In this document: positions 3,929 to 60,607 of the stretch, one piece after another
Layout of the letters: each line of letters begins with the position of its first letter
How positions within the stretch are numbered: the first letter of the stretch is position 1
NCBI GenBank assembly: GCA_964413645.1
Contig: CAYPSA010000006.1
Location: forward strand, 6,123 to 70,122
Source: an uncultured Gammaproteobacteria bacterium
GTDB lineage: Bacteria; Patescibacteriota; Microgenomatia; UBA1406; HO2-37-13b
Direction of reading: 5' to 3'
DNA length: 64,000 nt
The notes under the pieces: model-generated
The model's input: only the letters and a program-made list of their open reading frames with translations
What the model was told of the DNA's origin: nothing
Databases searched by the model: none
Position numbers and translations under genes: made by a program

Positions 3929-4849
3929 ATGAAAGCAGTAATCGCAAATGGCTATGGAGCGCCCGAAGTGTTGAGTGTTCAAAATGTTGAAAAGCCAATA
4001 CCAAAGAAAGGCGAGATTTTAATTAAAGTTAAAGCGGCTAGTTTGAATTCCGGGGACGTACGGATTCGATCGCTTGACGCTGGTGCAGGGTTAAAAGGTG
4101 TTATTGCAAAAACAATTATTCGTTTGCTTGTGGGAATTACAAAACCAAAACGAGTCCCTGGCATGGTGTTAGCTGGTGAAGTTGTAGCACTCGGTGACGG
4201 TGTGGATCAGTTTAAAATAGGCGATCAAGTGTTTGCAATGGCAGGATTTAGCTTTGGAGCATTCGGCGAGTATTGTGCTTTGCCTATTAAGCGAGCAATT
4301 GCACTAAAGCCAAAAAATGCTAGTTTTGAAGAAGCGAGCGCATTGCCCTTTGGTGGTAATACCGCATTATATTTTTTACGTAAAGCTGGTGCGGGTAAAA
4401 ATAAGCGCGTATTAATTTATGGATCTACGGGTGCAGTTGGATCATCAGCAGTTCAAGTTGCGAAATACTTGGGCTGTACTGTTACCGCCGTGTGCAGTAA
4501 AGATGGAATGAATTTATCAAAAACATTGGGAGCAAGCAAAGTATATGATTACCGAGCGACCGGACTCAATGAGATAGAAGGAACATTCGACTTAGTTTTT
4601 GATGCAGTGGGTAAAATTTCTAAAACAAAAGCAAAACATCTAATTTCTGTAAACGGCCAATACATTTCTGTTGAAGGTCTTGATGTTGCTAAGGAAAGTT
4701 CTGCGGATTTAGAACAACTTGCGAAAATGTTTGATAGTGGAAAATTAGTCGCGGTGATCGACAAAACATTTAAGTTAGAAGAAATTGTTGAAGCAAATAG
4801 ATATGTCGACACCGGGCACAAAAAAGGGAACGTAGTTTTAAAAATTTAA
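3929..4849 (+). CDS. NAD(P)-dependent quinone oxidoreductase / zinc-type alcohol dehydrogenase family (MDR)
   Basis: GroES-like N-terminus (GEILIKVKAASLNSGD) and Rossmann motif (YGSTGAVGSSAVQVAK). 306 aa. Confidence 0.75.
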   Translation: MKAVIANGYGAPEVLSVQNVEKPIPKKGEILIKVKAASLNSGDVRIRSLDAGAGLKGVIAKTIIRLLVGITKPKRVPGMVLAGEVVALGDGVDQFKIGDQVFAMAGFSFGAFGEYCALPIKRAIALKPKNASFEEASALPFGGNTALYFLRKAGAGKNKRVLIYGSTGAVGSSAVQVAKYLGCTVTAVCSKDGMNLSKTLGASKVYDYRATGLNEIEGTFDLVFDAVGKISKTKAKHLISVNGQYISVEGLDVAKESSADLEQLAKMFDSGKLVAVIDKTFKLEEIVEANRYVDTGHKKGNVVLKI

Positions 4850-4896
4850 AACAACTTTCGAAATTTTTGTAGTATGATTACTGGTACTACTTCATA

Positions 4897-6006
4897 ATGA
4901 TAAAAATACTTACAATTCTTTTTTTGTTCCTAACTTTTAGCGTTCAATTTACCACATCTGCTTTTGCCCAACAAACTCATGGAAATAGGCCTAATACTAC
5001 ATATTTTGAGGTTCGTGTTCTAAGCGTTAAAGATAAGTCGAATATTTTGTATCAAAATATGGCTGGAATAACTACGGTTGGTCTTGAAGTCGAAATTGAT
5101 TCGGGAAAATCGAAGGGTAAAAAGATTTCGATTGAACGAACAGACATTCCAAATAGTATGGGAGAGAAGCTAAGAACCGGGGATCATATTATTGTGGCTC
5201 GTAATATCGACCCGATAACCGGAAAAGAAATGTATTATATGACCGATTATGTACGTAAGAACCAACTATTTATTTTATTTGCTCTGTTCCTACTTTTTGT
5301 AGTTGTTATTGGTCGATTTCAAGGTCTTTTATCAGTCGGTGGAATGATTCTATCTTTTTTAATTATTATGAATCTAATAATTCCCCAAATTATGAATGGT
5401 GTTAATCCAGTGGGAGTAACGCTTTTGGGATCTCTTTTCATCATTCCATTAACATTCTATATGGCCCACGGAATTAATAAACACACAACTGTTGCGATAG
5501 TTGCTACATTTATCACGCTTGCATTGACCGGTGCTCTTGCTGTATTTTTTGTAGATTTTACTCGTCTTACTGGTTTTGCCATGGAAGAAGCTGTGTTTAT
5601 TCAGGCCATGAAAGGGAATGCAATTAATATTAAGAATTTACTTCTTGCGGGAATAATTATTGGAGCATTAGGAGTGCTTGACGATATTACTGTTTCGCAA
5701 ACATCAATAACTGAACGCCTGCATCATGCGAATCCTAAGTACGCCTTTAAGGAGCTGTATAACCAATCAATGAAAGTTGGTCGCGATCATATTGCATCGC
5801 TCGTTAATACTCTAATAATAGTCTATGCCGGAGCATCACTTCCATTGTTTTTATTATTTTCAGATCAGAATTTATCATTAATTCCGGTATTAAATCATGA
5901 AATAATTGCGACAGAAGTTGTGCGAACACTTGTTTCTAGTATTGGTATTATCTCCGCCGTGCCTATTGCAACGCTTCTTGCATGTATTGTTATAAAAAGA
6001 AAATAA
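4897..6006 (+). CDS. YibE/F family membrane protein
   Basis: Signal peptide plus a soluble N-domain, followed by about 7 TM helices with GVLDDITVSQ and RDHIAS motifs typical of YibE/F. Confidence 0.65.
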   Translation: MIKILTILFLFLTFSVQFTTSAFAQQTHGNRPNTTYFEVRVLSVKDKSNILYQNMAGITTVGLEVEIDSGKSKGKKISIERTDIPNSMGEKLRTGDHIIVARNIDPITGKEMYYMTDYVRKNQLFILFALFLLFVVVIGRFQGLLSVGGMILSFLIIMNLIIPQIMNGVNPVGVTLLGSLFIIPLTFYMAHGINKHTTVAIVATFITLALTGALAVFFVDFTRLTGFAMEEAVFIQAMKGNAINIKNLLLAGIIIGALGVLDDITVSQTSITERLHHANPKYAFKELYNQSMKVGRDHIASLVNTLIIVYAGASLPLFLLFSDQNLSLIPVLNHEIIATEVVRTLVSSIGIISAVPIATLLACIVIKRK

Positions 6007-6029
6007 AAGTAAATTACCTCTTGATTTAA

Positions 6030-6044
6030 TGCAAACCATTTGCA
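6030..6044 (+). promoter_or_regulatory. Putative Zur/Fur-family operator (perfect palindrome TGCAAA-CCA-TTTGCA) in the zur-znuABC promoter region
   Basis: 6-bp inverted arms with a 3-nt spacer, 4 nt downstream of TTGATT (6021-6026) and 19 nt upstream of the zur ATG. Confidence 0.45.
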
Positions 6045-6062
6045 ATAATAGTCTTTATAGCT

Positions 6063-6467
6063 ATGAACAAATTGGATCAACTTGTAAAAAATGGATTTCG
6101 AATTACAAAACCACGCCAGGCAATACTTGATGTGCTGGTTTCACACCCTGTAACGGTTCAAGAAATTTATGAATCATTAGAAAAAAAAGGCATTCATATT
6201 GATCTTACTTCCGTATATCGTTCACTTGAATTGTTTGTGGAACTTAAACTTGTGCAAGTTATCGAACTTGGAGAAGGTAAAAAACGATACGAATTGCTTA
6301 ACACCGACAATCATCATCACCATGTGATTTGTAATACTTGCGGAGTTATTGAAGATGTATCTATTGAACAGGAAAAAGAAATCCTTAAACATGTTACAAC
6401 GAAATCTCATTTTAAGATAGATACCCATACGTTAGAATTTTTTGGACAATGTCAGAATTGTCAGTGA
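6063..6467 (+). CDS. zur: Fur-family metalloregulator, probably Zur
   Basis: Winged-helix N-terminus, HHHHVIC..C and CxxC (CQNC) metal sites. It lies directly upstream of the zinc ABC transporter genes. Confidence 0.8.
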   Translation: MNKLDQLVKNGFRITKPRQAILDVLVSHPVTVQEIYESLEKKGIHIDLTSVYRSLELFVELKLVQVIELGEGKKRYELLNTDNHHHHVICNTCGVIEDVSIEQEKEILKHVTTKSHFKIDTHTLEFFGQCQNCQ

Positions 6468-6472
6468 TATAT

Positions 6473-7408
6473 ATGAAAAAAAACACGGTAATTTCCTTAC
6501 TTGTAATCGTCGTCATTTCTCTTGTAGTAAGCTTCTTATATATAGGATCTATTAATAAAAAATCGCAATCAAATCTGAAAGAGGAAAGCAATATTAGTGT
6601 TGTTGCATCATTTTATCCACTTCATTTCTTTGCTTCTCAAATTGCTGGTAATAAAGCAAATGTAATTAATCTTACTCCCGCAGGGGCCGAACCACATGAT
6701 TTTGAGCCAAGCACAAAAGATGTGGGAATAATTGAGAACAGTGACCTTGTGCTCATTAATGGCGTAGGTTTTGAACCGTGGGCTGAAAAGATCAAAGGAA
6801 ACCTGAAAAATAGCTCTGTCATATTTGAGCCAATTGCAGAGGGTTTGGCAAATATGGAAATTGTAGAAGAAGGTGAACTTATTCGGGATCCACATGTCTG
6901 GCTTGATCCTGTCCTCGCTAAACAGCAAGTTTTGAAAATAAGTCAGTTGTTCACTGAAATTGATCCTCAGAATGAAGCAATGTATGCGGCGAATAGTAAA
7001 AATCTTACGAATCAACTTGATGAACTTAATAGGCAATTTGAACAAGGTTTGTCTCAATGTAGTCAAAAAGAATTTATTACGTCACATAGCGCATTTACGT
7101 ATCTTGCATCGCGTTATGGAATTAAGCAAGTGTCTATTGCTGGCTTGTCGCCTGATCAAGAACCATCACCCAAGGAATTGGCTGAAGTAACATCGTTTGC
7201 AAAAGCAAATAATGTTAAGTATATTTTTTTTGAAACATTGGTGAGTCCCCGATTATCTCAAGCAGTTGCTCAAGAAATTGGCGCTCAAACGCTTGTGTTA
7301 AATCCTTTGGAAGGAATAGTAGAAGAAGAGCAGAAAGCGGGGCGTAATTACTTTACCGTACAAGAAGAAAACTTAAAAAATTTGAAAATTGCATTACAGT
7401 GTAAATAA
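6473..7408 (+). CDS. znuA: Metal (zinc) ABC transporter substrate-binding lipoprotein, ZnuA/TroA family
   Basis: EPHDFEPS and DPHVWLDP motifs with a TM/signal N-terminus. Start moved to ATG 6473 (MKKNTV), just after the zur stop. Confidence 0.8.
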   Translation: MKKNTVISLLVIVVISLVVSFLYIGSINKKSQSNLKEESNISVVASFYPLHFFASQIAGNKANVINLTPAGAEPHDFEPSTKDVGIIENSDLVLINGVGFEPWAEKIKGNLKNSSVIFEPIAEGLANMEIVEEGELIRDPHVWLDPVLAKQQVLKISQLFTEIDPQNEAMYAANSKNLTNQLDELNRQFEQGLSQCSQKEFITSHSAFTYLASRYGIKQVSIAGLSPDQEPSPKELAEVTSFAKANNVKYIFFETLVSPRLSQAVAQEIGAQTLVLNPLEGIVEEEQKAGRNYFTVQEENLKNLKIALQCK

Positions 7409-18373: not shown

Positions 18374-18625
18374 ATGAGATATTTTTTCTACATGCTTCGA
18401 TGTAGCGATGACTCGTTATATTGCGGAATAACCAATGATGTGGAGCATCGTTTAAATGAGCATAATCATGGTAAAGGATCAAAGTATGTTCGATCGCGAA
18501 AGCCAGCCTATCTTGTATATGCAGAAGAGCACGCCGACATTTCAAGAGCACTTAAGCGCGAAGCGGAAGTTAAAAAATGGAGCAAAGCGAAAAAAGAGAA
18601 GTTGGTTAGTAATGAACTCGGGTAA
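18374..18625 (+). CDS. GIY-YIG nuclease-superfamily protein (stand-alone URI domain)
   Basis: YFFYMLRCSDDSLYCGITNDVEHRLNEHN carries the GIY-YIG signature. TACAAT lies 6 nt upstream of the ATG. Confidence 0.8.
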   Translation: MRYFFYMLRCSDDSLYCGITNDVEHRLNEHNHGKGSKYVRSRKPAYLVYAEEHADISRALKREAEVKKWSKAKKEKLVSNELG

Positions 18626-18655
18626 CTGTATTTGGCTCGCGTGCTATACTATAGT

Positions 18656-20128
18656 ATGTCTGCAAAAAAGATAATAATTATTGGAAGTGGTTTTGGCGGA
18701 TTGTGCAGTGCAGTACTTTTGGCAAAGCAAGGCCATCATGTTACGGTACTCGAGAAAAATGCACGATTAGGTGGCAGAGCCATGACATTTGATCAAAAGG
18801 GATACCATTTCGATATGGGTCCTTCATGGTATTTAATGCCCGAAGTATTTGAAGATTATTTCAAATTATTCGGAAAAGATATTACGCAATATATCAAGTT
18901 ACATCCCCTTGATCCGATGTATCGAATGTTTTTCTCTCCAAACGATCATGTCGATATTGTGCGAAGTTTAGACAAAAATTTGAAATTGTTTGAATCATTT
19001 GAGAAAGGAGCGGGAGCATCGATAAAAGCATACCTTGATGAGTCTAAAGTGCAATATGAAATTGCGATGAAACACTTTTTGTACACTGAATTTCGAACAA
19101 TCTTTGATTTTCTAAAACCCCAGTTATTCACCGTTGGAAAAAAAGTACCGGTGCTTAAGAATCTTCAAGATCATATCGCTTCATATACTAAAGATCCTCG
19201 TTTACAAAAGATTTTAGGTTACACAATGGTCTTTTTGGGAGGTGCGCCGAGTAATACGCCCGCACTTTATTCCCTTATGTCGCACGTAGATTACAATTTG
19301 GGGGTATTTTATCCAATGGGTGGATTCGGAGCACTAGTCGATGCATTTGTAAAGCTTGGGAAAGAATATGGTGTTCGCTATATCGCCTCACATCCGGTTA
19401 TAAAAATTGAAACGGAACGTGGAAAAGCAACTACGGTTAAGACTACAAAAAAGAACTTTTCTGCAGATATTGTTCTTGCGAATGCTGACTATCAACACGT
19501 GGAATCTAAACTGCTTGATGAACACGATAGAACATATAACAAATCATATTGGGAATCGAAAACAATGGCGCCATCAGCATTTATTATTCATCTTGGCATG
19601 AAGGAGCGAGTTCCAAATCTTCAACATCATAATCTCATATTAACGCAAGATTGGCAGAAACATTTTGATGCAATATTTGACAAGCCTAAGTGGCCTCAAA
19701 AACCATCTTATTACGTGTGTTGTCCAACAAAAACAGATACAACTATAGCACCTAAAAATTGTGATGAATTATTTATTCTTGTGCCTGTAGCGGCAGGATT
19801 AAAAGACACTCCACTACAACGAAAAAAATACTATGAAAAAATTATGGACGATCTTGAGCTCCACATAAAGTATCCACTTCGTAAACATATTGCTTACAAG
19901 AGAATGTATGCTCATAATGATTTTAGTGCAGATTATAATGCATATAAAGGAACCGCTTTAGGTCTTGCACATACACTTTCGCAAACAGCCATTTTACGCC
20001 CTGCAATGAAGAGTAAGAAAGTGTCTAATTTATATTATGTAGGACAGTACACACAGCCCGGAATTGGTGTTCCAATTGCTGTTATTTCTGCACAACTCGT
20101 TGCAAAGAGAATTTATGAAGACAATTAA
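18656..20128 (+). CDS. crtI: Phytoene desaturase-family FAD oxidoreductase
   Basis: N-terminal FAD fold IIIIGSGFGGLCSAVLLAKQGHHVTVLEKNARLGGRA and C-terminal YYVGQYTQPGIGVP. Start set to ATG 18656 because TGcTATACT lies 5 nt upstream. Confidence 0.8.
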   Translation: MSAKKIIIIGSGFGGLCSAVLLAKQGHHVTVLEKNARLGGRAMTFDQKGYHFDMGPSWYLMPEVFEDYFKLFGKDITQYIKLHPLDPMYRMFFSPNDHVDIVRSLDKNLKLFESFEKGAGASIKAYLDESKVQYEIAMKHFLYTEFRTIFDFLKPQLFTVGKKVPVLKNLQDHIASYTKDPRLQKILGYTMVFLGGAPSNTPALYSLMSHVDYNLGVFYPMGGFGALVDAFVKLGKEYGVRYIASHPVIKIETERGKATTVKTTKKNFSADIVLANADYQHVESKLLDEHDRTYNKSYWESKTMAPSAFIIHLGMKERVPNLQHHNLILTQDWQKHFDAIFDKPKWPQKPSYYVCCPTKTDTTIAPKNCDELFILVPVAAGLKDTPLQRKKYYEKIMDDLELHIKYPLRKHIAYKRMYAHNDFSADYNAYKGTALGLAHTLSQTAILRPAMKSKKVSNLYYVGQYTQPGIGVPIAVISAQLVAKRIYEDN

Positions 20129-20942
20129 TTCGACTGAAGAAAAAAGAAAGATTTTTAAACGGTCGAGCACGACTTACTATTATTCAAGTTTATTTTTTAC
20201 GGGTCAAACAAAAGAAGATGTTTTTACCTTATATGCATTTGTGCGATATGCAGATAATTTAGTCGATGCAATTCCTCCGAAAAAAAATGAGTTCTTTGAT
20301 TTTTGTAAAAATGTGCAACGCGCATATAAAGGAGAAGTAATTGGAGATCATATTATTGATGATTTTATTGAACTATCGAAAAGAAAGAAGTTTGAGCAAG
20401 CTTGGACGTCTGCATTTTTAGATTCTATGAAGGCAGATTTGACCAAGCATACATATCATACATACGAAGAATTGCAGAAATATATGTATGGATCTGCTAA
20501 TGTGATTGGTTTGTTTATGTGCGCAATTTTTGATACAGGCGCACGTGCATTGCCAAATGCCCAAGCACAAGGAGAAGCAATGCAATTTATAAACTTTATT
20601 CGCGATATTGATGAGGATTTCAAATTGGGCCGGCAGTATATTCCTACACACGACGTTAAAAAATTCCATACGCATATTCCACCAAAACCTAGCGAAGAGG
20701 AAGCATTTCGTTCACTTGTGCGAAATCAGATTGATAAATATAGAAAAGTTCAGCAGTATGCAAGGAAAGGGCATAAATATATAGATCGCCGTTTTAGGAT
20801 AATGGTAAAAACTTCAGCCGACATGTATGAATGGACTGCAGACCAAATTTATAAAGATCCCATGGTTGTATTCCAGAAAAAAATAAAACCTGCAAAATGG
20901 TATGTGATTGCAACTGTTATAAAGCACGCTCTCTTTTCTTAA
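20115..20942 (+). CDS. crtB: Phytoene/squalene synthase-family enzyme
   Basis: The two Asp-rich motifs are YAFVRYADNLVD and FIRDIDEDFKLGRQYIP. ATG 20115 overlaps the crtI end by 14 nt. Confidence 0.8.
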   Translation: MKTINSTEEKRKIFKRSSTTYYYSSLFFTGQTKEDVFTLYAFVRYADNLVDAIPPKKNEFFDFCKNVQRAYKGEVIGDHIIDDFIELSKRKKFEQAWTSAFLDSMKADLTKHTYHTYEELQKYMYGSANVIGLFMCAIFDTGARALPNAQAQGEAMQFINFIRDIDEDFKLGRQYIPTHDVKKFHTHIPPKPSEEEAFRSLVRNQIDKYRKVQQYARKGHKYIDRRFRIMVKTSADMYEWTADQIYKDPMVVFQKKIKPAKWYVIATVIKHALFS

Positions 20943-20946
20943 GAGT

Positions 20947-21795
20947 ATGTCGATAGACAAACTGCTGTTTATTACCAAAGTTTCTCGTCCACGATTTTGG
21001 CTGTATTTGGCAGGACCATATTTACTTGGTTCCGTAGCATTTTCTACATTAGAGCGTTCTCTTGCGGAATGGGTCTTATTATTCTATGGTTTTATTTTCT
21101 TTTTAATTCCAGCAAACATTTTTCTATATGGTTTAAATGATTTCTTTGATTTTGATACTGATCAATTTAATAAGAAAAAAACCGATAAGGAATCGTTACT
21201 GCGCGGTGCTTCTAATCGAATACTGGTTTCACGACTCGTTGGTTTCAGTTTTATCTTATCATTGCCATTGTTTTATTATTTGGATTTTTATGGAAGGGTT
21301 TTGCTTGGATTGTTTTTATTTCTTTCGTTTTCATATAGTGCTCCCCCTTTGCGATTCAAGTCGAAAGTAATCTTCGATAGTCTTTCAAACATCTTGTATA
21401 TACTTCCCGGATTAATCGCTTATATGTTTACTTCACAACTTTTTCCTTCGATGCAAATTATTCTTGCAGGCTTTCTATGGGCAATAGCAATGCATTTATT
21501 TTCTGCAATACCAGACATAGTTCCCGATAAGAAAGCAGGCATTCAAACGAGCGCAGTTTTTTTTGGGAAAGAAAAGTCACTATTTATTTGCTCTGTTTTA
21601 TGGTCTTTGGTAGGAGTATGTTTGCTCCCAAATATGGTTTTTTTCTTCATTGGACTGTTGTACGCTAGTATTCCGCTAGTTCTTCTAATTCGAGGAGCTT
21701 CAAGTTATGAACTGGAAAAAACATATTGGAGATTCCCATATATTAATGGTTTACTAGGCTTTCTTACTTTTATATATATGTTTTACAAAGCATGA
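20947..21795 (+). CDS. UbiA-family prenyltransferase (lycopene-elongase-like by context)
   Basis: About 8 TM helices and an NDxxDxxxD motif (LNDFFDFDTDQ). It sits between crtB and a glycosyltransferase gene. Confidence 0.7.
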   Translation: MSIDKLLFITKVSRPRFWLYLAGPYLLGSVAFSTLERSLAEWVLLFYGFIFFLIPANIFLYGLNDFFDFDTDQFNKKKTDKESLLRGASNRILVSRLVGFSFILSLPLFYYLDFYGRVLLGLFLFLSFSYSAPPLRFKSKVIFDSLSNILYILPGLIAYMFTSQLFPSMQIILAGFLWAIAMHLFSAIPDIVPDKKAGIQTSAVFFGKEKSLFICSVLWSLVGVCLLPNMVFFFIGLLYASIPLVLLIRGASSYELEKTYWRFPYINGLLGFLTFIYMFYKA

Positions 21796-22514
21796 AAGTT
21801 TCGATCATAATACCAACATTAAATGAGGAGTTGTATATTGGCACGCTCCTTGCATCAATACAAGCACAGTCGTATATGGTCGATGAAGTATTTGTAGTTG
21901 ATGGAGGATCAGTTGATACAACAAAAAAGATTGTGAGTTCTTTTAAAAACGTCCACTTTGTTATTGCTAATCAACCTGTAGGAAACCAACGTACTGCAGG
22001 AGGAAAAAATGCCTCGGGAGATTTACTTATTTTTTTGGATGCAGATGTGAAATTAGAGAAGAACTTTGTGACCGATGTGCTTGCTGAGATGAAAGATAGA
22101 TCTCTTGACGTGGCTTGTCCGAAATATTTACCTTATCCGGGTAGCGTACTTATTAATGCATTTTACTTTTTGTTCAACTCATTATTTTTACTTGTTCAAA
22201 GTTCAGTACATTCTGGTGCAGGATCATGTATTTGTGTAAGAAAGGATTTGTTTAGACGAATAGGCGGCTTCGACGCAAATATGCATTTTGATGACATAGT
22301 ATTTATCCGTAAAGCAGGAAAACTTGGTAAGTATGGAATTTTATCTTCGGCCGTAAATGTTTCTGATAGGCGATTTCGTAAATATGGAATTCTTCAAACA
22401 TGTTTGACGTATGTTTTATTGTCTATTCTATTTACATTTGGATTATATCGATACGCGAATTCTATTCCTTATGTGTTTGGTGCATTTAACGTATTTAACA
22501 AAAAAAAGGTATAA
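21792..22514 (+). CDS. Family-2 glycosyltransferase
   Basis: VSIIIPTLNEE and VVDGGSVDTT motifs, with FLDADV as the DxD. Overlaps the upstream gene by 4 nt. Confidence 0.75.
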   Translation: MKVSIIIPTLNEELYIGTLLASIQAQSYMVDEVFVVDGGSVDTTKKIVSSFKNVHFVIANQPVGNQRTAGGKNASGDLLIFLDADVKLEKNFVTDVLAEMKDRSLDVACPKYLPYPGSVLINAFYFLFNSLFLLVQSSVHSGAGSCICVRKDLFRRIGGFDANMHFDDIVFIRKAGKLGKYGILSSAVNVSDRRFRKYGILQTCLTYVLLSILFTFGLYRYANSIPYVFGAFNVFNKKKV

Positions 22515-22521
22515 TCTAACA

Positions 22522-23580
22522 ATGAAAAATCTACTATTGTATAGTACTCAAAAAAAAGAACTGCTCAAATCGTTTATGCAGTTATTTTTCCAAGAACAAA
22601 AGAAGTATTCGTCTGGTGAACAATCAAGAAAAGCACTTGAACGTTTAGAAGAATTTGCTCTTCAAGGAAAAATGCTTCGTGGCACGTTCGTACTTCTTTC
22701 CAATGAAATGTATGGTGGTGAAGTTTCACAAGATGCTTTGTCGATAGCAAGTGCTGTGGAATTGACTCATGCCATACTTCTTATTCATGACGATATTATG
22801 GATAATGATGAAAAGCGCAGAAATGCTCCTTCAATGTTCGCTCAATACGCTTCAGATGCTCGAATACAAAAGCTTACAAGTCCAGATGTATATGGAAAAT
22901 CTGTTGCTATGATAGTCGGTGACGTAGGTCTTTTACTGGCTTTTGAGCTTTTATCTAATCTTAACGCAACTCAAAATGTTTCAAATAAAATTCGTCAAAG
23001 TTTTTCACAGGAAATGGTGCAAGTTGCATATGGACAATTGATGGATTTTGATTTTGGTCAGATAGCCGAGATGAGAAGTGAAAAAGACATTGAGAATATG
23101 TATAAACTTAAAACAGGGGGCTATACTTTTACTCTCCCTTTCAAATTCGGCGCGTTACTTTCGAATGTAACTGATGAAGAGCAAATGAAACTTGATAAAT
23201 TAACTCAGCTATTGGGAATAACATTTCAGCTTAAGGATGACGAGTTGGGGATAATGGGAGAGAGTGATGTTACAGGGAAAAGTATTGGCTCAGATGTTCG
23301 AGAAGGTAAAAAGACATTATTGTGGGTACGGCTCTATGCCGCGTGTACTGATAGTGAAAAGAACCTATTGAGTTCATATTTAGGAGAAGAAATAAATACT
23401 GAGCAAATCAATGAAATACGATCGCTGTTACAGAAATATAAGGTACTAGTAAGAATCCAAGATGAAATAAATGACGCTTCTATTCGTGCGAATTCAATCG
23501 TTGACTTATTATCGGTAGATGTTAAATATAAAGTGATTCTGAAGGAATTGATAGAGTACAACGCACATCGCAACTCGTAA
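22522..23580 (+). CDS. Polyprenyl (geranylgeranyl/farnesyl) diphosphate synthase family
   Basis: The first Asp-rich motif is LLIHDDIMDNDEKRR. The second-motif region is FQLKDDELG followed by GKSIGSDVREGKKT. Start set to ATG 22522 because TATAAT lies 6 nt upstream. Confidence 0.8.
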   Translation: MKNLLLYSTQKKELLKSFMQLFFQEQKKYSSGEQSRKALERLEEFALQGKMLRGTFVLLSNEMYGGEVSQDALSIASAVELTHAILLIHDDIMDNDEKRRNAPSMFAQYASDARIQKLTSPDVYGKSVAMIVGDVGLLLAFELLSNLNATQNVSNKIRQSFSQEMVQVAYGQLMDFDFGQIAEMRSEKDIENMYKLKTGGYTFTLPFKFGALLSNVTDEEQMKLDKLTQLLGITFQLKDDELGIMGESDVTGKSIGSDVREGKKTLLWVRLYAACTDSEKNLLSSYLGEEINTEQINEIRSLLQKYKVLVRIQDEINDASIRANSIVDLLSVDVKYKVILKELIEYNAHRNS

Positions 23581-23622
23581 GTGTCTCGGAATGGAAATGT
23601 CACATTGTTTTTAAATAACCAT

Positions 23623-24201
23623 ATGCAAATTGAATTTGAAGCAACGTTCACAAACATCGATAAGGATGTAATGCGAAAAAAACTTTCTTTAGTTGGAGCT
23701 ACTCTGGTGAGAGCAGAATATTTACAAAAGAGAATTGTTTTTGAACTTCCACCAGGTCATGAAATTCCCGGAGGGTGGTTGAGAGTACGTGATGAAGGTG
23801 ACAAGATTACTATGAGTTTGAAAGTGGTGAGTGGAAACAGGATTGAAGATCAAAAAGAAGTATGCTTAACCGTCGACAATTTTGATGAAGCAGTATTATT
23901 CTTGAAATCAATTGGTTGTGTCCAAAAAGCGTACCAAGAAAGTAGGCGCGAATTATGGGTGCTTGATGATGTGGAAATTACGATCGATGAGTGGCCATTT
24001 TTGGAACCGTTCGTTGAGGTAGAAGGGAAGTCGAAAGAAGTGGTTAAAAGTGTTTCACAAAAGCTTGGATTTGATTACTCAAAAGCACTTTTTTGCGCTG
24101 TAACGAAGTTATATAGCGACAAATATGGAATTCCCATGAACGTAATAAATGATCATACTGAGAAGATTGTTTTTGGAGGAGAAAACCCATTTAAGATTTG
24201 A
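23623..24201 (+). CDS. CYTH-like domain protein (weak call)
   Basis: Starts MQIEFEATF, an ExExK-like motif with Thr in place of Lys. About 190 aa. The track start 23581 is a GTG. Confidence 0.4.
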   Translation: MQIEFEATFTNIDKDVMRKKLSLVGATLVRAEYLQKRIVFELPPGHEIPGGWLRVRDEGDKITMSLKVVSGNRIEDQKEVCLTVDNFDEAVLFLKSIGCVQKAYQESRRELWVLDDVEITIDEWPFLEPFVEVEGKSKEVVKSVSQKLGFDYSKALFCAVTKLYSDKYGIPMNVINDHTEKIVFGGENPFKI

Positions 24202-59437: not shown

Positions 59438-60607
59438 ATGAACAACGAGCAGAAGATATATGATGTAGTAATTGTAGGTGCTGGATATGCTGGTTTGTAC
59501 TTAGCTCAGCTACTTTCGCAACAATATTCAGTATGTCTAGTAGAGAAAAAGAAGGACTTGGTAGGAGAGCTTAACACAACGGGTTCTACTCTTTTTAACC
59601 AGAAAGATGATATTTTTACTCTCTTTAACATTCCAGAAGAGCTTATATTGACAAAGTATAGCTCGATAAGTATCCAGTCTAAGATAAATAAGGTTACAAC
59701 TGAAAAGAATATGTTTCCATGGGTATTACTAGATATCCCTGCTTTAAAAAAGTATCTCGTGAATAATATTCACAAGTCTGCCTACATTATGAAAGGGAGT
59801 GAGGTAATAGATATCATTAAGCATAAAGACTCTTATGAAGGGGTTACGGTTCAAAATATTGATACTAGAGAAGAAGTTCAAATAAAGGGGAAAATGATCG
59901 TGGATGCTTCGGGTTCAAGTGATGCTTTGGCGACTAAAACACATATGAGGATACCTCGATTTAAATCGCAATGTTATCAGGTTGATGCAGATATAGATAT
60001 TGATTTTGATGATTCACATGTGCAAACATTTATGGGGCACCCTTTTTGTGAAAAAGGCTATGCATACATTTTCCCCATAAGTAAGAAGCGCGTTCGGATT
60101 GGTACCAACTCTATTTACAGTCTGACGGGAAATAAGGCTGGTATTGAAGATCTTTTCGCAGACTTTCTACGATATTTGAATGCCACCCCTACCAACATTG
60201 ATAATGAGGTAAAGATAGAAGTTTACACGGGAGGTGTAAATATAAACAATTCAAAAAATAATTTATTAATAATTGGAGACGCTGCGGGATATATATCACC
60301 ATTTGTTGGTGAAGGAATTCGTTTTGCATTCCATTCAGCGGACATTGCTTCTAAACTAGTTGCTTCGTATTTAGAATCTGGGAATAAGAGTTCACTAGAA
60401 CAATTCTATAGTCAGTGGGAAAAACGCTTTGGGCGCACGTTTAAGTTATCGTATTATTTGCAGTATATTTTATTGCATATTAATGATAATCTTATAGATA
60501 GTTTCGTGTATAAATTACAGAAAGTATCGAGAAAACACCCTTTGTTGTTGTTTAAATTTATTGCTACTAAGAATACTTTCATCGATTTTGTACGAATCAT
60601 AGTATGA
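59438..60607 (+). CDS. Geranylgeranyl-reductase-family FAD-dependent oxidoreductase
   Basis: YDVVIVGAGYAGL FAD fold and IGDAAGYISPFVGEGI motif. Confidence 0.6.
   Translation: MNNEQKIYDVVIVGAGYAGLYLAQLLSQQYSVCLVEKKKDLVGELNTTGSTLFNQKDDIFTLFNIPEELILTKYSSISIQSKINKVTTEKNMFPWVLLDIPALKKYLVNNIHKSAYIMKGSEVIDIIKHKDSYEGVTVQNIDTREEVQIKGKMIVDASGSSDALATKTHMRIPRFKSQCYQVDADIDIDFDDSHVQTFMGHPFCEKGYAYIFPISKKRVRIGTNSIYSLTGNKAGIEDLFADFLRYLNATPTNIDNEVKIEVYTGGVNINNSKNNLLIIGDAAGYISPFVGEGIRFAFHSADIASKLVASYLESGNKSSLEQFYSQWEKRFGRTFKLSYYLQYILLHINDNLIDSFVYKLQKVSRKHPLLLFKFIATKNTFIDFVRIIV

Follow-up and report, generated by a model that had tools for sequence, protein, structure and literature searches.

Five tightly packed genes on the forward strand of a 64,000-nucleotide stretch of DNA (the window) from a Roizmanbacteria-like CPR bacterium probably form a native operon for a glycosylated carotenoid, acyclic and elongated, that belongs to the bacterioruberin family. 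The combination of a LyeJ-type lycopene elongase with a GT2 glycosyltransferase appears to be a variant that has not been described so far.

Layout of the cluster and its promoter-like boxes

The five genes occupy 18656-23580 (Table 1). All open reading frames are present, and their Pfam matches (Amino_oxidase/NAD_binding_8, 127 bits; SQS_PSY, 168 bits; UbiA, 76 bits; Glycos_transf_2, 84 bits; polyprenyl_synt, 178 bits) bear out the co-directional genes and the families named in the first-pass annotation, as the coordinates do the two gene overlaps that it reported. The start that it gave to the desaturase gene has to be corrected: position 18645 marks the beginning of a TATACT box, not a start codon. 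The longest open reading frame of this gene starts with TTG at 18632.

Table 1. Features of the cluster and one further gene, in window coordinates.
Feature	Coordinates	Strand	Remarks
Extended -10-like box TGcTATACT	18642..18650	+	ends 5 nt before crtID ATG 18656
crtID (CrtI-family FAD desaturase)	18656..20128	+	ATG start
crtB-like (SQS_PSY family)	20115..20942	+	14-nt overlap with crtID (20115-20128)
LyeJ-type UbiA prenyltransferase gene	20947..21795	+	
GT2 glycosyltransferase gene	21792..22514	+	4-nt overlap with UbiA gene
Promoter-like TTAACG-18 nt-TATAAT	22486..22515	+	within GT2 3′ end; ends 6 nt before synthase ATG 22522
CrtE-like short-chain trans-polyprenyl diphosphate synthase gene	22522..23580	+	ATG start
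Geranylgeranyl-reductase-like gene	59438..60607		TIGR02032, 118.6 bits (cutoff 158.8)

Shine-Dalgarno-like motifs were found at none of 59 gene starts across the window, and a TATAAT-like box (a match at five or more of six positions) ends 4-8 nt upstream of 10 of the 48 ATG starts in the window, compared with 4.4% for ATGs in general (p = 4e-5). The earlier description of the promoters as leaderless-type therefore fits a window-wide pattern. Both crtID and the synthase gene have a near-consensus -10 box at this distance from their ATG; the box at crtID is likely to be a leaderless or very short-leader promoter, and the one upstream of the synthase gene is likewise a predicted promoter. A generic promoter scan of the cluster region yielded 18 sites versus 25.6 expected from shuffles, and so did not rise above the shuffles.

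Enzyme families

The desaturase passes the NCBIfam equivalog NF058655 (CrtID; 680.7 bits, cutoff 640), which represents the bifunctional phytoene/3,4-desaturase of haloarchaeal bacterioruberin synthesis, and scores 498.7 bits with TIGR02734. The desaturases of haloarchaeal crtI-prenyltransferase-cruF clusters, which are 44-46% identical to it, score 750-754 bits on the CrtID model. The family was found by experiment in Haloarcula japonica to combine CrtI and CrtD activities (PMC11946383), and the window protein is accordingly predicted to be a bifunctional phytoene desaturase and carotenoid 3,4-desaturase. The first-pass observation that the window has no CrtD becomes moot, because the lone desaturase falls in this bifunctional family. 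KO-based JGI names on homologues include "1-hydroxy-2-isopentenylcarotenoid 3,4-desaturase" and "lycopene elongase/hydratase".

Direct reading of the translations recovers the Asp-rich motifs noted earlier, namely YADNLVD and RDIDED in the crtB-like protein and N64-D65-F-F-D68-F-D-T-D72 (NDxxDxxxD) in the UbiA protein, which also has a second motif, DIVPD. The crtB-like protein passes no NCBIfam equivalog; its best match is HpnD (118 bits, cutoff 278) and its best PDB match HpnC, and the CrtB proteins of the haloarchaeal clusters likewise match HpnD first and below cutoff. Its identity to the synthases of other crtI-crtB-UbiA-GT2 loci is 34-80%; for two loci with CruF in place of GT2, it is 45% (L084) and 43% (L085). 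Its presumed C40 product is suggested by this context; sequence alone does not separate CrtB from CrtM or HpnC/D.

The UbiA protein passes the LyeJ-type model PRK12875 (272.4 bits, cutoff 205) and fails the CrtEb-type model PRK13105 (about 111 bits, cutoff 217). The two models separate the types, as haloarchaeal LyeJ proteins score 397-426 bits on the former and a CrtEb-like protein of Agromyces 448 bits on the latter. Thus the comparison with lycopene elongases made in the first-pass annotation holds, for LyeJ rather than for the actinobacterial CrtEb. The protein is 41-43% identical to LyeJ of haloarchaeal crtI-lyeJ-cruF clusters, and a homologue with 80% identity carries the JGI name lycopene elongase/hydratase. 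In a small neighbor-joining tree, with weak internal support and composed entirely of sequences without experimental characterisation, the CrtEb-like clade splits off with 100% support and the CruF-linked UbiA of a Roizmanbacteria genome (L084) is placed among the GT2-linked ones. The window protein is predicted to be a lycopene elongase/1,2-hydratase. A quinone-type identity, which had been set out as a check on the original reading, was rejected (quinone-type models, 30 bits or less).

The GT2 protein (240 aa) has a GT-A fold with a C-terminal hydrophobic helix, a DAD motif that is invariant in 38 homologues, and two hydrophobic stretches (residues 117-137 and 198-218) in a crude hydropathy scan. 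Its AlphaFold model (pLDDT 92.7) matches generic GT-A enzymes in the PDB, and the protein stays below every NCBIfam cutoff (TIGR04283, 126 bits, cutoff 182). CruC and CruG (green sulfur bacteria and cyanobacteria) and CrtQ (staphylococci) are GT2 (GT-A) enzymes that glycosylate 1′/2′-hydroxyls of psi ends; the window protein matches CruG weakly (51 bits, far under the cutoff of 600) and is much shorter. Since no curated cutoff is passed and the fold matches are generic, it is only the linkage of the gene that points to an acceptor, and the protein is predicted on this ground to be a carotenoid 1-OH glycosyltransferase. The glycosylated end product proposed earlier is plausible to this degree. 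Some GT2 homologues are fused with a NUDIX/IDI-like domain, which ties the subfamily to isoprenoid metabolism. Of 120 homologues listed, at least 20 lie on a contig equal in size to that of a listed UbiA or CrtI homologue.

The polyprenyl diphosphate synthase contains the motifs IHDDIMDND and DDELG, as read in the translation, with a FARM of DDIMD, a SARM of DDELG and a non-aromatic residue at -5, as in CrtE of actinobacterial clusters. Its best NCBIfam and PDB relatives are FPP and GGPP synthases, none above cutoff; it is predicted to be a GGPP synthase, a chain length that its sequence does not set.

Related loci and alternative readings

The window and 17 fetched loci related to it, 18 in all, were compared. 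The gene after the elongase gene is CruF in seven and a member of the GT2 subfamily in eleven, and no locus has both, as though one had replaced the other instead of joining it. Ten independent loci (L001-L004, L086-L089, L092 and L093) again show the order crtI-crtB-UbiA-GT2, and in two of them (L086 and L089) an IDS gene stands between crtB and UbiA; this recurrence is more than chance. The GT2 gene directly follows the LyeJ-type UbiA gene in 10/10 of the other GT2-type loci, three of which were picked by GT2 similarity only and three by UbiA similarity only, and the adjacency is kept in genomes that range from 35% to 62% GC and whose flanking genes are otherwise unrelated. An IDS gene lies within the module in L001, L002, L084, L086 and L089. 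The window has no cyclase gene and no CruF homologue (tblastn E > 0.3), as had been noted at first. The sole GT2-like match in the CruF-type loci is in L082, where a distantly similar glycosyltransferase gene (27% identity) lies on the other strand, two genes upstream of crtI.

Among the closest known systems is the bacterioruberin cluster of Haloarcula japonica (crtD/c0507, lyeJ/c0506, cruF/c0505), represented here by L081 (Halarchaeum) and L082 (Halocatena). In both, a CrtID desaturase gene adjoins a LyeJ-type UbiA gene, a phytoene synthase gene is in the cluster, and desaturase and elongase pass the same NCBIfam equivalogs as those of the window. In contrast, the window lacks CruF, couples a GT2 gene to the elongase gene and includes a GGPP-synthase-like gene, identity is only 41-46%, and the cluster comes from a CPR bacterium of low GC content, not from a halophilic archaeon. 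Close relatives of the window elongase are the UbiA proteins (45-49% identical) of Roizmanbacteria L084 (CP065004.1; order crtI-crtB-IDS-UbiA) and Nanosalina L085 (CP180230.1), where the gene after the elongase is PF04240 Caroten_synth (CruF) instead of GT2. Actinobacterial decaprenoxanthin and sarcinaxanthin clusters also combine a GGPP synthase, phytoene synthase, CrtI and a UbiA-family elongase, but that elongase is CrtEb-type, and the C50 cyclase genes are missing from the window. The actinobacterial clusters come with crtX, and no homologue of the window GT2 was detected in the actinobacterial loci compared. These clusters (crtE-crtB-crtI-crtYe/Yf-crtEb) lead to glycosylated C50 carotenoids (PMC3598387).

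An unlikely alternative is the canonical pathway, with CruF encoded elsewhere in the genome, a C50 product with four hydroxyls, and GT2 making bacterioruberin glycosides as in Arthrobacter agilis. Such glycosides are known natural products (PMC10991996), cruF is far from lyeJ and crtD in a Saccharibacteria genome from Lake Baikal (PMC9948471), another Roizmanbacteria genome (L084) has IDS-UbiA-CruF, and the part of this genome that was inspected spans about 70 kb. Against this, CruF adjoins or is near the elongase gene in 7/7 CruF-type loci but occurs in 0/11 GT2-type loci in the sequence fetched around them (at most 8-10 kb per side, contig permitting). A C40 glycoside of the rhodopin or hydroxylycopene type, made with a UbiA protein that is non-elongating, a hydratase only, or active on another acceptor, is rather improbable. 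The modest identity and score of the UbiA protein relative to haloarchaeal LyeJ would fit it, as would a UbiA clade and GT2 subfamily without a characterised member; yet the protein passes the curated LyeJ-type cutoff, keeps both Asp-rich prenyl-diphosphate-binding motifs, which would be superfluous for a pure hydratase, and has the UbiA of CruF-linked L084 placed among its GT2-linked relatives in the tree.

It is very unlikely that GT2, possibly with the synthase, is a cell-envelope gene that merely lies beside pigment genes, leaving the carotenoid unglycosylated: the 4-nt overlap with the elongase gene, the adjacency maintained between unrelated flanks and the fusions to IDI-like domains all speak against it, although a generic JGI homologue name ("glycosyltransferase involved in cell wall biosynthesis"), the generic fold, the separate promoter-like box of the synthase gene and the requirement for FPP in making undecaprenyl phosphate in any case are compatible with it. 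GT2 enzymes (CrtQ) also work in the C30 staphyloxanthin pathway, which, with the HpnD and HpnC matches of the crtB-like protein, would fit a squalene/hopanoid (HpnCDE) or C30 diapocarotenoid (CrtM/CrtN/CrtQ-like) cluster. That reading is hardly credible, as those matches are far under cutoff and are shared by haloarchaeal phytoene synthases, the desaturase is above cutoff for the C40 CrtID equivalog, and the operon has a LyeJ-type elongase gene and a GGPP-synthase-like gene but no cyclase. A squalene/hopanoid identity, another check set for the original reading, was rejected, the desaturase scoring only 41.6 bits on the HpnE model (cutoff 283).

Host, precursors and proposed pathway

A Candidatus Roizmanbacteria MAG encodes a CrtI 83% identical to that of the window, with synteny along both flanks. 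This synteny and a GC content (35.7%) close to that of the window (37.6%) point to a native origin of the cluster, which would be a chromosomal one of a Roizmanbacteria-like CPR bacterium. The first-pass annotation was right about the host as well as the gene identities and the likeness to LyeJ, and less so about the missing CrtD and about the pathway being unexpected in CPR bacteria. The latter claim is weakened because Haro-Moreno et al. 2023 (PMC9948471) reported the bacterioruberin genes lyeJ, crtD and cruF in Candidatus Patescibacteria of deep Lake Baikal, and because a mevalonate pathway was described for most Microgenomates in 2018 (PMC6107057); UbiA homologues also include NCBI-named proteins of Roizmanbacteria, Woesebacteria and "Patescibacteria group". 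The Baikal report concerns the same superphylum and the lyeJ and crtD families, but its lineages are Saccharibacteria and "Baikalibacteria" rather than Microgenomates, and its lyeJ, crtD and cruF are often unclustered with GT2 unmentioned, as opposed to a compact operon without CruF.

Mevalonate-pathway enzymes and IDI-I occur in most Microgenomates (PMC6107057), which largely answers for the lineage the earlier question of where IPP and DMAPP come from, although no IPP-pathway gene, including those for mevalonate-pathway enzymes and IDI-I, is within the window. IPP and DMAPP would be made elsewhere in the genome, presumably by this pathway. From homology, the CrtE-like synthase would convert them to GGPP, CrtB would join two GGPP into phytoene, and CrtID alone would desaturate phytoene to lycopene. 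The LyeJ-type UbiA protein would then attach a DMAPP-derived C5 unit to C-2 and hydrate C-1, at one or both ends, and CrtID would introduce 3,4 double bonds to give isopentenyldehydrorhodopin (C45) and/or bisanhydrobacterioruberin (C50). The GT2, anchored in the membrane and with its translation coupled to that of the elongase, would glycosylate the tertiary 1-hydroxyls. As CruF is absent from the window, the side-chain hydration that completes bacterioruberin would probably be skipped, with sugars as the polar end groups instead.

The pigment is likely to reinforce the membrane and protect from light and oxidants; the Baikal report likewise proposed a membrane-adaptation role. The geranylgeranyl-reductase-like gene noted at first is real, below the model cutoff (Table 1). 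UV-repair genes adjoin the module in L082, L084, L088 and L092, an observation counted toward a light-related role.

Gene organization and chromosomal setting

The carotenoid-type cluster recognized in the first-pass annotation proved to be real: five co-directional genes occupy 4.9 kb, neighboring genes overlap or lie no more than 7 nt apart, and the Pfam families of all five proteins were confirmed, each far above its gathering score. The cluster start originally placed at 18645 had to be moved, as a -10-like box, and no codon, begins there; the longest orf of crtID has a TTG start at 18632, and the ATG is listed in the table. The catalytic motifs cited for these proteins are present in the translations: NDFFDFDTD in the UbiA-family protein, YADNLVD and RDIDED in the crtB-like synthase, and DDIMD and DDELG in the polyprenyl diphosphate synthase.

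Coordinates within the window of the five-gene operon and of other genes discussed in the text
Feature	Length	Coordinates	Strand	Basis or remark
GIY-YIG nuclease-domain gene (small)		18374-18625	+	directly upstream of crtID
crtID, CrtI-family flavoenzyme	490 aa	18656-20128	+	ATG start; orf and Pfam
SQS_PSY-family synthase (crtB-like)	275 aa	20115-20942	+	14-nt overlap with crtID
UbiA-family membrane protein	282 aa	20947-21795	+	orf and Pfam
GT2 glycosyltransferase	240 aa	21792-22514	+	4-nt overlap with UbiA gene
Polyprenyl diphosphate synthase	352 aa	22522-23580	+	orf and Pfam
CYTH-domain (triphosphate tunnel metalloenzyme) orf		23581-24201	+	begins one base past the synthase stop codon
Cysteine-rich orf	184 aa	24210-24764	-	N-terminal hydrophobic segment
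Ribosomal protein S15 orf	140 aa	35857-36279	+	Pfam match to residues 59-138 only
Geranylgeranyl-reductase-family flavoprotein		59438-60607	+

The gene content of the window is bacterial (sigma-70, DnaG, FtsK, MurJ, FemAB, LytR, DnaK/DnaJ/GrpE, PNPase, PilN/O). The nearest locus in a species-representative genome is that of a Candidatus Roizmanbacteria MAG (L001), with 83% identity in CrtI and synteny on both flanks from Ham1 to MscS, in which 16 flanking and cluster proteins have 59-96% amino acid identity (BipA being 96% identical). The GC content of the cluster (35.7%) matches that of the window (37.6%). Therefore, the operon is a native part of the chromosome of a Roizmanbacteria-like bacterium (Microgenomates, CPR), as had been suspected, and mis-binning or recent insertion was rejected on the same evidence. 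The same CPR-like cluster of crtI-crtB-UbiA-GT2 is found, at 38-44% GC, in three TPA MAGs labelled 'uncultured Gammaproteobacteria' (L002 CAYQYZ01, L003 CAZHTP01, L004 CAZPDN01), whose taxonomic labels look unreliable.

Several neighbors of the operon deserve comment. In the syntenic L001, crtI is preceded by two other orfs, and the homologue of the GIY-YIG gene is found beyond the permease gene (6598-6786); the spot upstream of crtID is variable and the gene may be mobile. The CYTH orf has no match in any fetched locus, L001 included, and was therefore rejected as a member of the module; it probably has no connection with the pathway. The cysteine-rich orf matched no family and has a counterpart of 75% identity in L001. 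The S15 orf has either an N-terminal extension or a true start at an internal codon.

Promoter-like boxes precede two genes of the operon: TGcTATACT ends 5 nt 5′ of the crtID ATG, and TTAACG-18 nt-TATAAT ends 6 nt 5′ of the ATG of the polyprenyl synthase gene. No Shine-Dalgarno-like motif was found at any of 59 gene starts across the window, and a box with at least five of six matches to TATAAT, ending 4-8 nt upstream, is found at 10 of 48 ATG starts versus 4.4% of all ATGs (p = 4e-5), both boxes of the cluster belonging to these ten near-consensus starts. Starts that exemplify the short-leader pattern are 18374, 18656, 22522, 25541, 49905 and 63516. The lack of Shine-Dalgarno motifs and the enrichment of TATAAT boxes make leaderless or near-leaderless expression of the cluster plausible, and mRNAs with no leader or a very short one may be usual in this genome. 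Thus, the leaderless-type promoters first proposed for crtI and the polyprenyl synthase gene fit a window-wide pattern by the placement of their boxes, whereas a generic promoter scan of the region gave no enrichment over shuffles (18 sites versus 25.6 expected).

Assignment of the biosynthetic enzymes

The desaturase scores 680.7 bits with the NCBIfam model NF058655 (residues 6-483 against model positions 1-478), which is above the equivalog cutoff of 640 bits over the full length, and haloarchaeal control desaturases score 750-754 bits. The model, named 'CrtID, bifunctional phytoene desaturase/3,4-desaturase', rests on C0507 and D1086 of Haloarcula japonica, each of which has CrtI and CrtD activity by gene disruption and complementation, a demonstration that applies to these two proteins only (PMC11946383). 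As a predicted member of this family, one crtID gene can serve both desaturation roles; therefore, the apparent absence of crtD, listed earlier among the missing genes, is no gap.

The crtB-like synthase fits the SQS_PSY fold (168 bits with Pfam) and possesses two Asp-rich motifs, and none of the NCBIfam equivalog models passed: the best was HpnD (118 bits, cutoff 278.6), HpnC gave 87.6 bits (cutoff 250), and the CrtB models were also below cutoff. The phytoene synthases of two haloarchaeal controls (L081 of Halarchaeum and L082 of Halocatena) likewise match HpnD first and below cutoff, at 182-193 bits. Relatives of the synthase in the PDB (HpnC, CrtM and a phytoene synthase) are equally distant. 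The squalene/hopanoid reading, which the first-pass annotation had left to be checked, was rejected on these HMM scores and controls: the synthase is below cutoff with HpnC and HpnD, and the desaturase has 41.6 bits with HpnE (cutoff 283). The synthase is 34-80% identical to those of the other loci with a UbiA-GT2 gene pair, and 45% and 43% identical to those of a complete Roizmanbacteria genome (L084, CP065004.1) and of Nanosalina (L085, CP180230.1). Because it is translationally coupled to a C40-type desaturase and related to the synthases of loci with LyeJ-type elongases, its product is predicted to be C40 (phytoene). At 4687-6155 and 6206-6946 of L084, crtI appears as two called orfs (121 and 353 aa), and crtB lacks a gene call and was detected by tblastn at 45% identity; these features may be due to frameshifts, pathway decay or assembly errors.

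The UbiA-family protein (76 bits with Pfam UbiA) has hydrophobic segments, the motif N64-D65-x-x-D68-x-x-x-D72 and a DIVPD motif. With PRK12875 (NF009516) it scores 272.4 bits (cutoff 205), with PRK13105 111.6 bits (cutoff 217), with PRK13595 96 bits, and with models of quinone, chlorophyll and archaeal-lipid prenyltransferases no more than 45 bits, so that the quinone clade, also to be checked, was not borne out. The meaning of the first two models was calibrated with the haloarchaeal megaplasmid clusters L081 and L082, annotated as crtB-crtI-prenyltransferase-cruF (cruF for bisanhydrobacterioruberin hydratase), whose prenyltransferases score 397-426 bits with PRK12875 and about 105 bits with PRK13105; the corresponding scores of an Agromyces elongase, encoded in a crtE-crtB-crtI-...-UbiA cluster, are 151 and 448 bits. 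Therefore, the window protein is of the LyeJ type and not the CrtEb type, which narrows the original proposal of a LyeJ- or CrtEb-like elongase; the CrtEb alternative was rejected on its PRK13105 score and on a bootstrapped neighbor-joining tree in which 100% support divides the actinobacterial clade from the LyeJ-type proteins. The protein is 41-43% identical to haloarchaeal LyeJ, and a metagenomic homologue of 80% identity bears the JGI KO-derived name 'lycopene elongase/hydratase (dihydrobisanhydrobacterioruberin-forming)'. It is predicted to prenylate the psi-end of lycopene with a C5 unit at C-2 and hydrate it at C-1.

The polyprenyl diphosphate synthase is of the short-chain type, with FPP and GGPP synthases as its best relatives, and in its FARM, SARM and small -5 residue it is like the CrtE of actinobacterial carotenoid clusters; GGPP is its presumptive product. 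PDB sequence searches with CrtB, UbiA and the polyprenyl synthase gave no signal of specificity. The geranylgeranyl-reductase-family flavoprotein, 36 kb from the cluster, was considered as a lycopene cyclase and rejected, since it fits the reductase family better (TIGR02032, 118.6 bits, cutoff 158.8) than Pfam Lycopene_cycl (45.9 bits). It was left out of the cluster and is linked to the operon in none of the relatives examined; it might saturate polyprenyl chains.

The elongase-glycosyltransferase pair in other genomes

The GT2 protein passed no curated model: it scores 126 bits with TIGR04283 (cutoff 182), and its 51 bits with CruG (cutoff 600), the known carotenoid glycosyltransferase with which it was compared, set it outside that family. 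Structure prediction gave a generic GT-A fold (pLDDT 92.7) with only generic GT-A matches in the PDB, the C-terminus is a hydrophobic helix, and the DAD motif is kept without change by 38 homologues. Of the 120 GT2 homologues listed, at least 20 are on contigs of the same size as those of UbiA or CrtI homologues also listed. Among the GT2 homologues, several of about 417 aa (P0291, P0299, P0318, P0321, P0329, P0338, P0355) are fusions to a C-terminal NUDIX domain, some of them named isopentenyl-diphosphate isomerase by NCBI (Armatimonadota), and in L087, a locus fetched for its GT2, a GT2-IDI fusion (5190-6443) follows crtI-crtB-UbiA. The fusion is a predicted Rosetta-stone link between GT2 and DMAPP supply, and by these associations the GT2 subfamily appears tied to isoprenoid metabolism as well as to the elongase.

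The gene order crtI-crtB-UbiA-GT2 recurs in ten fetched loci with GC contents of 35-62%: L001-L004, a Woesebacteria contig (L086), three loci chosen solely by GT2 similarity (L087-L089) and two chosen solely by UbiA similarity (L092, L093). In L086 and L089, crtB and UbiA are separated by an IDS gene. In seven other loci (three of Acidobacteriota, two haloarchaeal, Nanosalina and the complete Roizmanbacteria genome) the neighbor of the elongase is instead CruF (PF04240). CruF and GT2 occur together in none of the 18 loci, the window included: no CruF homologue is present in the fetched stretch of any GT2-type locus, and the sole GT2-like match in the CruF-type loci is a distant glycosyltransferase of L082 (27% identical), encoded two genes upstream of crtI in the reverse orientation. 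When the window was searched by tblastn with two CruF queries, no hit was better than E = 0.3, and neither PF04240 nor a cyclase came up when essentially all its orfs of at least 110 aa were compared with Pfam, in agreement with the initial reading of the sequence.

The cluster is similar to the haloarchaeal bacterioruberin pathway in its CrtID and LyeJ-type prenyltransferase, but it lacks the elongase-adjacent CruF that defines the canonical crtD-lyeJ-cruF cluster, and therefore should not be classed as a bacterioruberin cluster proper. It is a member neither of the HpnCDE kind nor of the actinobacterial CrtEb/C50-cyclase kind, from which it differs in its PRK13105 score and in having gaps of no more than 7 nt that exclude crtYe/Yf between crtI and the elongase.

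Predicted pathway and its alternatives

The gene families of the operon, their coupling and the conservation of the module are accommodated by a route in which the CrtE-like synthase would produce GGPP, CrtB would convert it to phytoene, and CrtID would convert phytoene to lycopene. C5 prenylation and 1,2-hydration by the LyeJ-type elongase, with 3,4-desaturation by CrtID, would then yield C45 isopentenyldehydrorhodopin and/or C50 bisanhydrobacterioruberin, the tertiary 1-hydroxyls of which GT2 would glycosylate. Lacking CruF, the side chains would remain unhydrated and sugars would serve as polar caps instead. We consider this route to a C45/C50 carotenoid glycoside fairly probable as a whole, its individual activities being predicted from the genes, as are chain length, sugar and role. 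The functional idea of the first-pass annotation, that a CPR host has an elongase and glycosylates the product, is upheld and sharpened to a LyeJ-type enzyme with CrtID, and the recurrent adjacency of UbiA and GT2 favors the predicted glycosylation.

Other readings would change one element of this route. CruF might be encoded elsewhere in the genome, so that canonical bacterioruberin is formed and glycosylated in addition; this reading is rather improbable, CruF being absent from the fetched stretch of every GT2-type locus. A C40 glycoside is improbable as the product of an operon with a LyeJ-type elongase. That GT2 is unconnected with the pigment would agree with its generic fold, and is very improbable beside its recurrent pairing with the elongase and the fusion of some homologues to NUDIX domains. 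A C30 or squalene-type pathway, to which the HpnD match of the synthase might point, is hardly credible with a desaturase that scores as CrtID.

The source of IPP and DMAPP, raised as a question at the outset, is answered at the level of the lineage, most Microgenomates having a mevalonate pathway and IDI-I being universal in CPR (Hoshino and Gaucher, PMC6107057), but not by the window, where no mevalonate, MEP or IDI gene was detected by Pfam among essentially all orfs of at least 110 aa; the approximately 6 kb upstream of the window contain nothing relevant. The expectation that such a pathway would be surprising in CPR was overstated, and current views are not overturned, as the Microgenomates mevalonate pathway and bacterioruberin genes of Patescibacteria were already published: lyeJ, crtD and cruF are described in Candidatus Patescibacteria of Lake Baikal, with a proposed role in cold membranes (PMC9948471). 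The UbiA homologues include prenyltransferases named by NCBI as Roizmanbacteria, Woesebacteria and 'Patescibacteria group'. In open-access texts, no literature was found on an elongase (LyeJ)-GT2 module or on carotenoid clusters in Microgenomates. The remaining novelty is a predicted ending of the C50 pathway that lacks CruF, is coupled to GT2 and occurs widely among uncultured lineages.

CPR bacteria are viewed as having minimal metabolism and as relying on hosts for their lipids, and they are not known to synthesize fatty acids. A complete native operon for a long polar carotenoid would mean that some Microgenomates invest in a membrane or photoprotective lipid of their own, and C45/C50 (di)glycosides could be among the few membrane components that CPR cells make for themselves. 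The LyeJ-like elongase and its dedicated GT2 constitute a putative enzyme pair that recurs in CPR bacteria, Armatimonadota-labelled contigs and other uncultured lineages, and the cluster could yield new C50 glycosides. Only tentatively may it be proposed that the pair represents a widespread alternative ending of the C50 pathway, in which glycosylation of the 1-hydroxyls replaces hydration by CruF and gives bipolar, membrane-spanning C45/C50 (di)glycosides.

Genes of UV repair adjoin the module in four unrelated loci: photolyase in L084 (3304-4644) and L088 (8707-10047), Pyr_excise in L092 (10324-10647) and a pyrimidine-dimer glycosylase in L082 (1063-1404). These neighbors hint at a light-related role or a light-protection neighborhood for the module.
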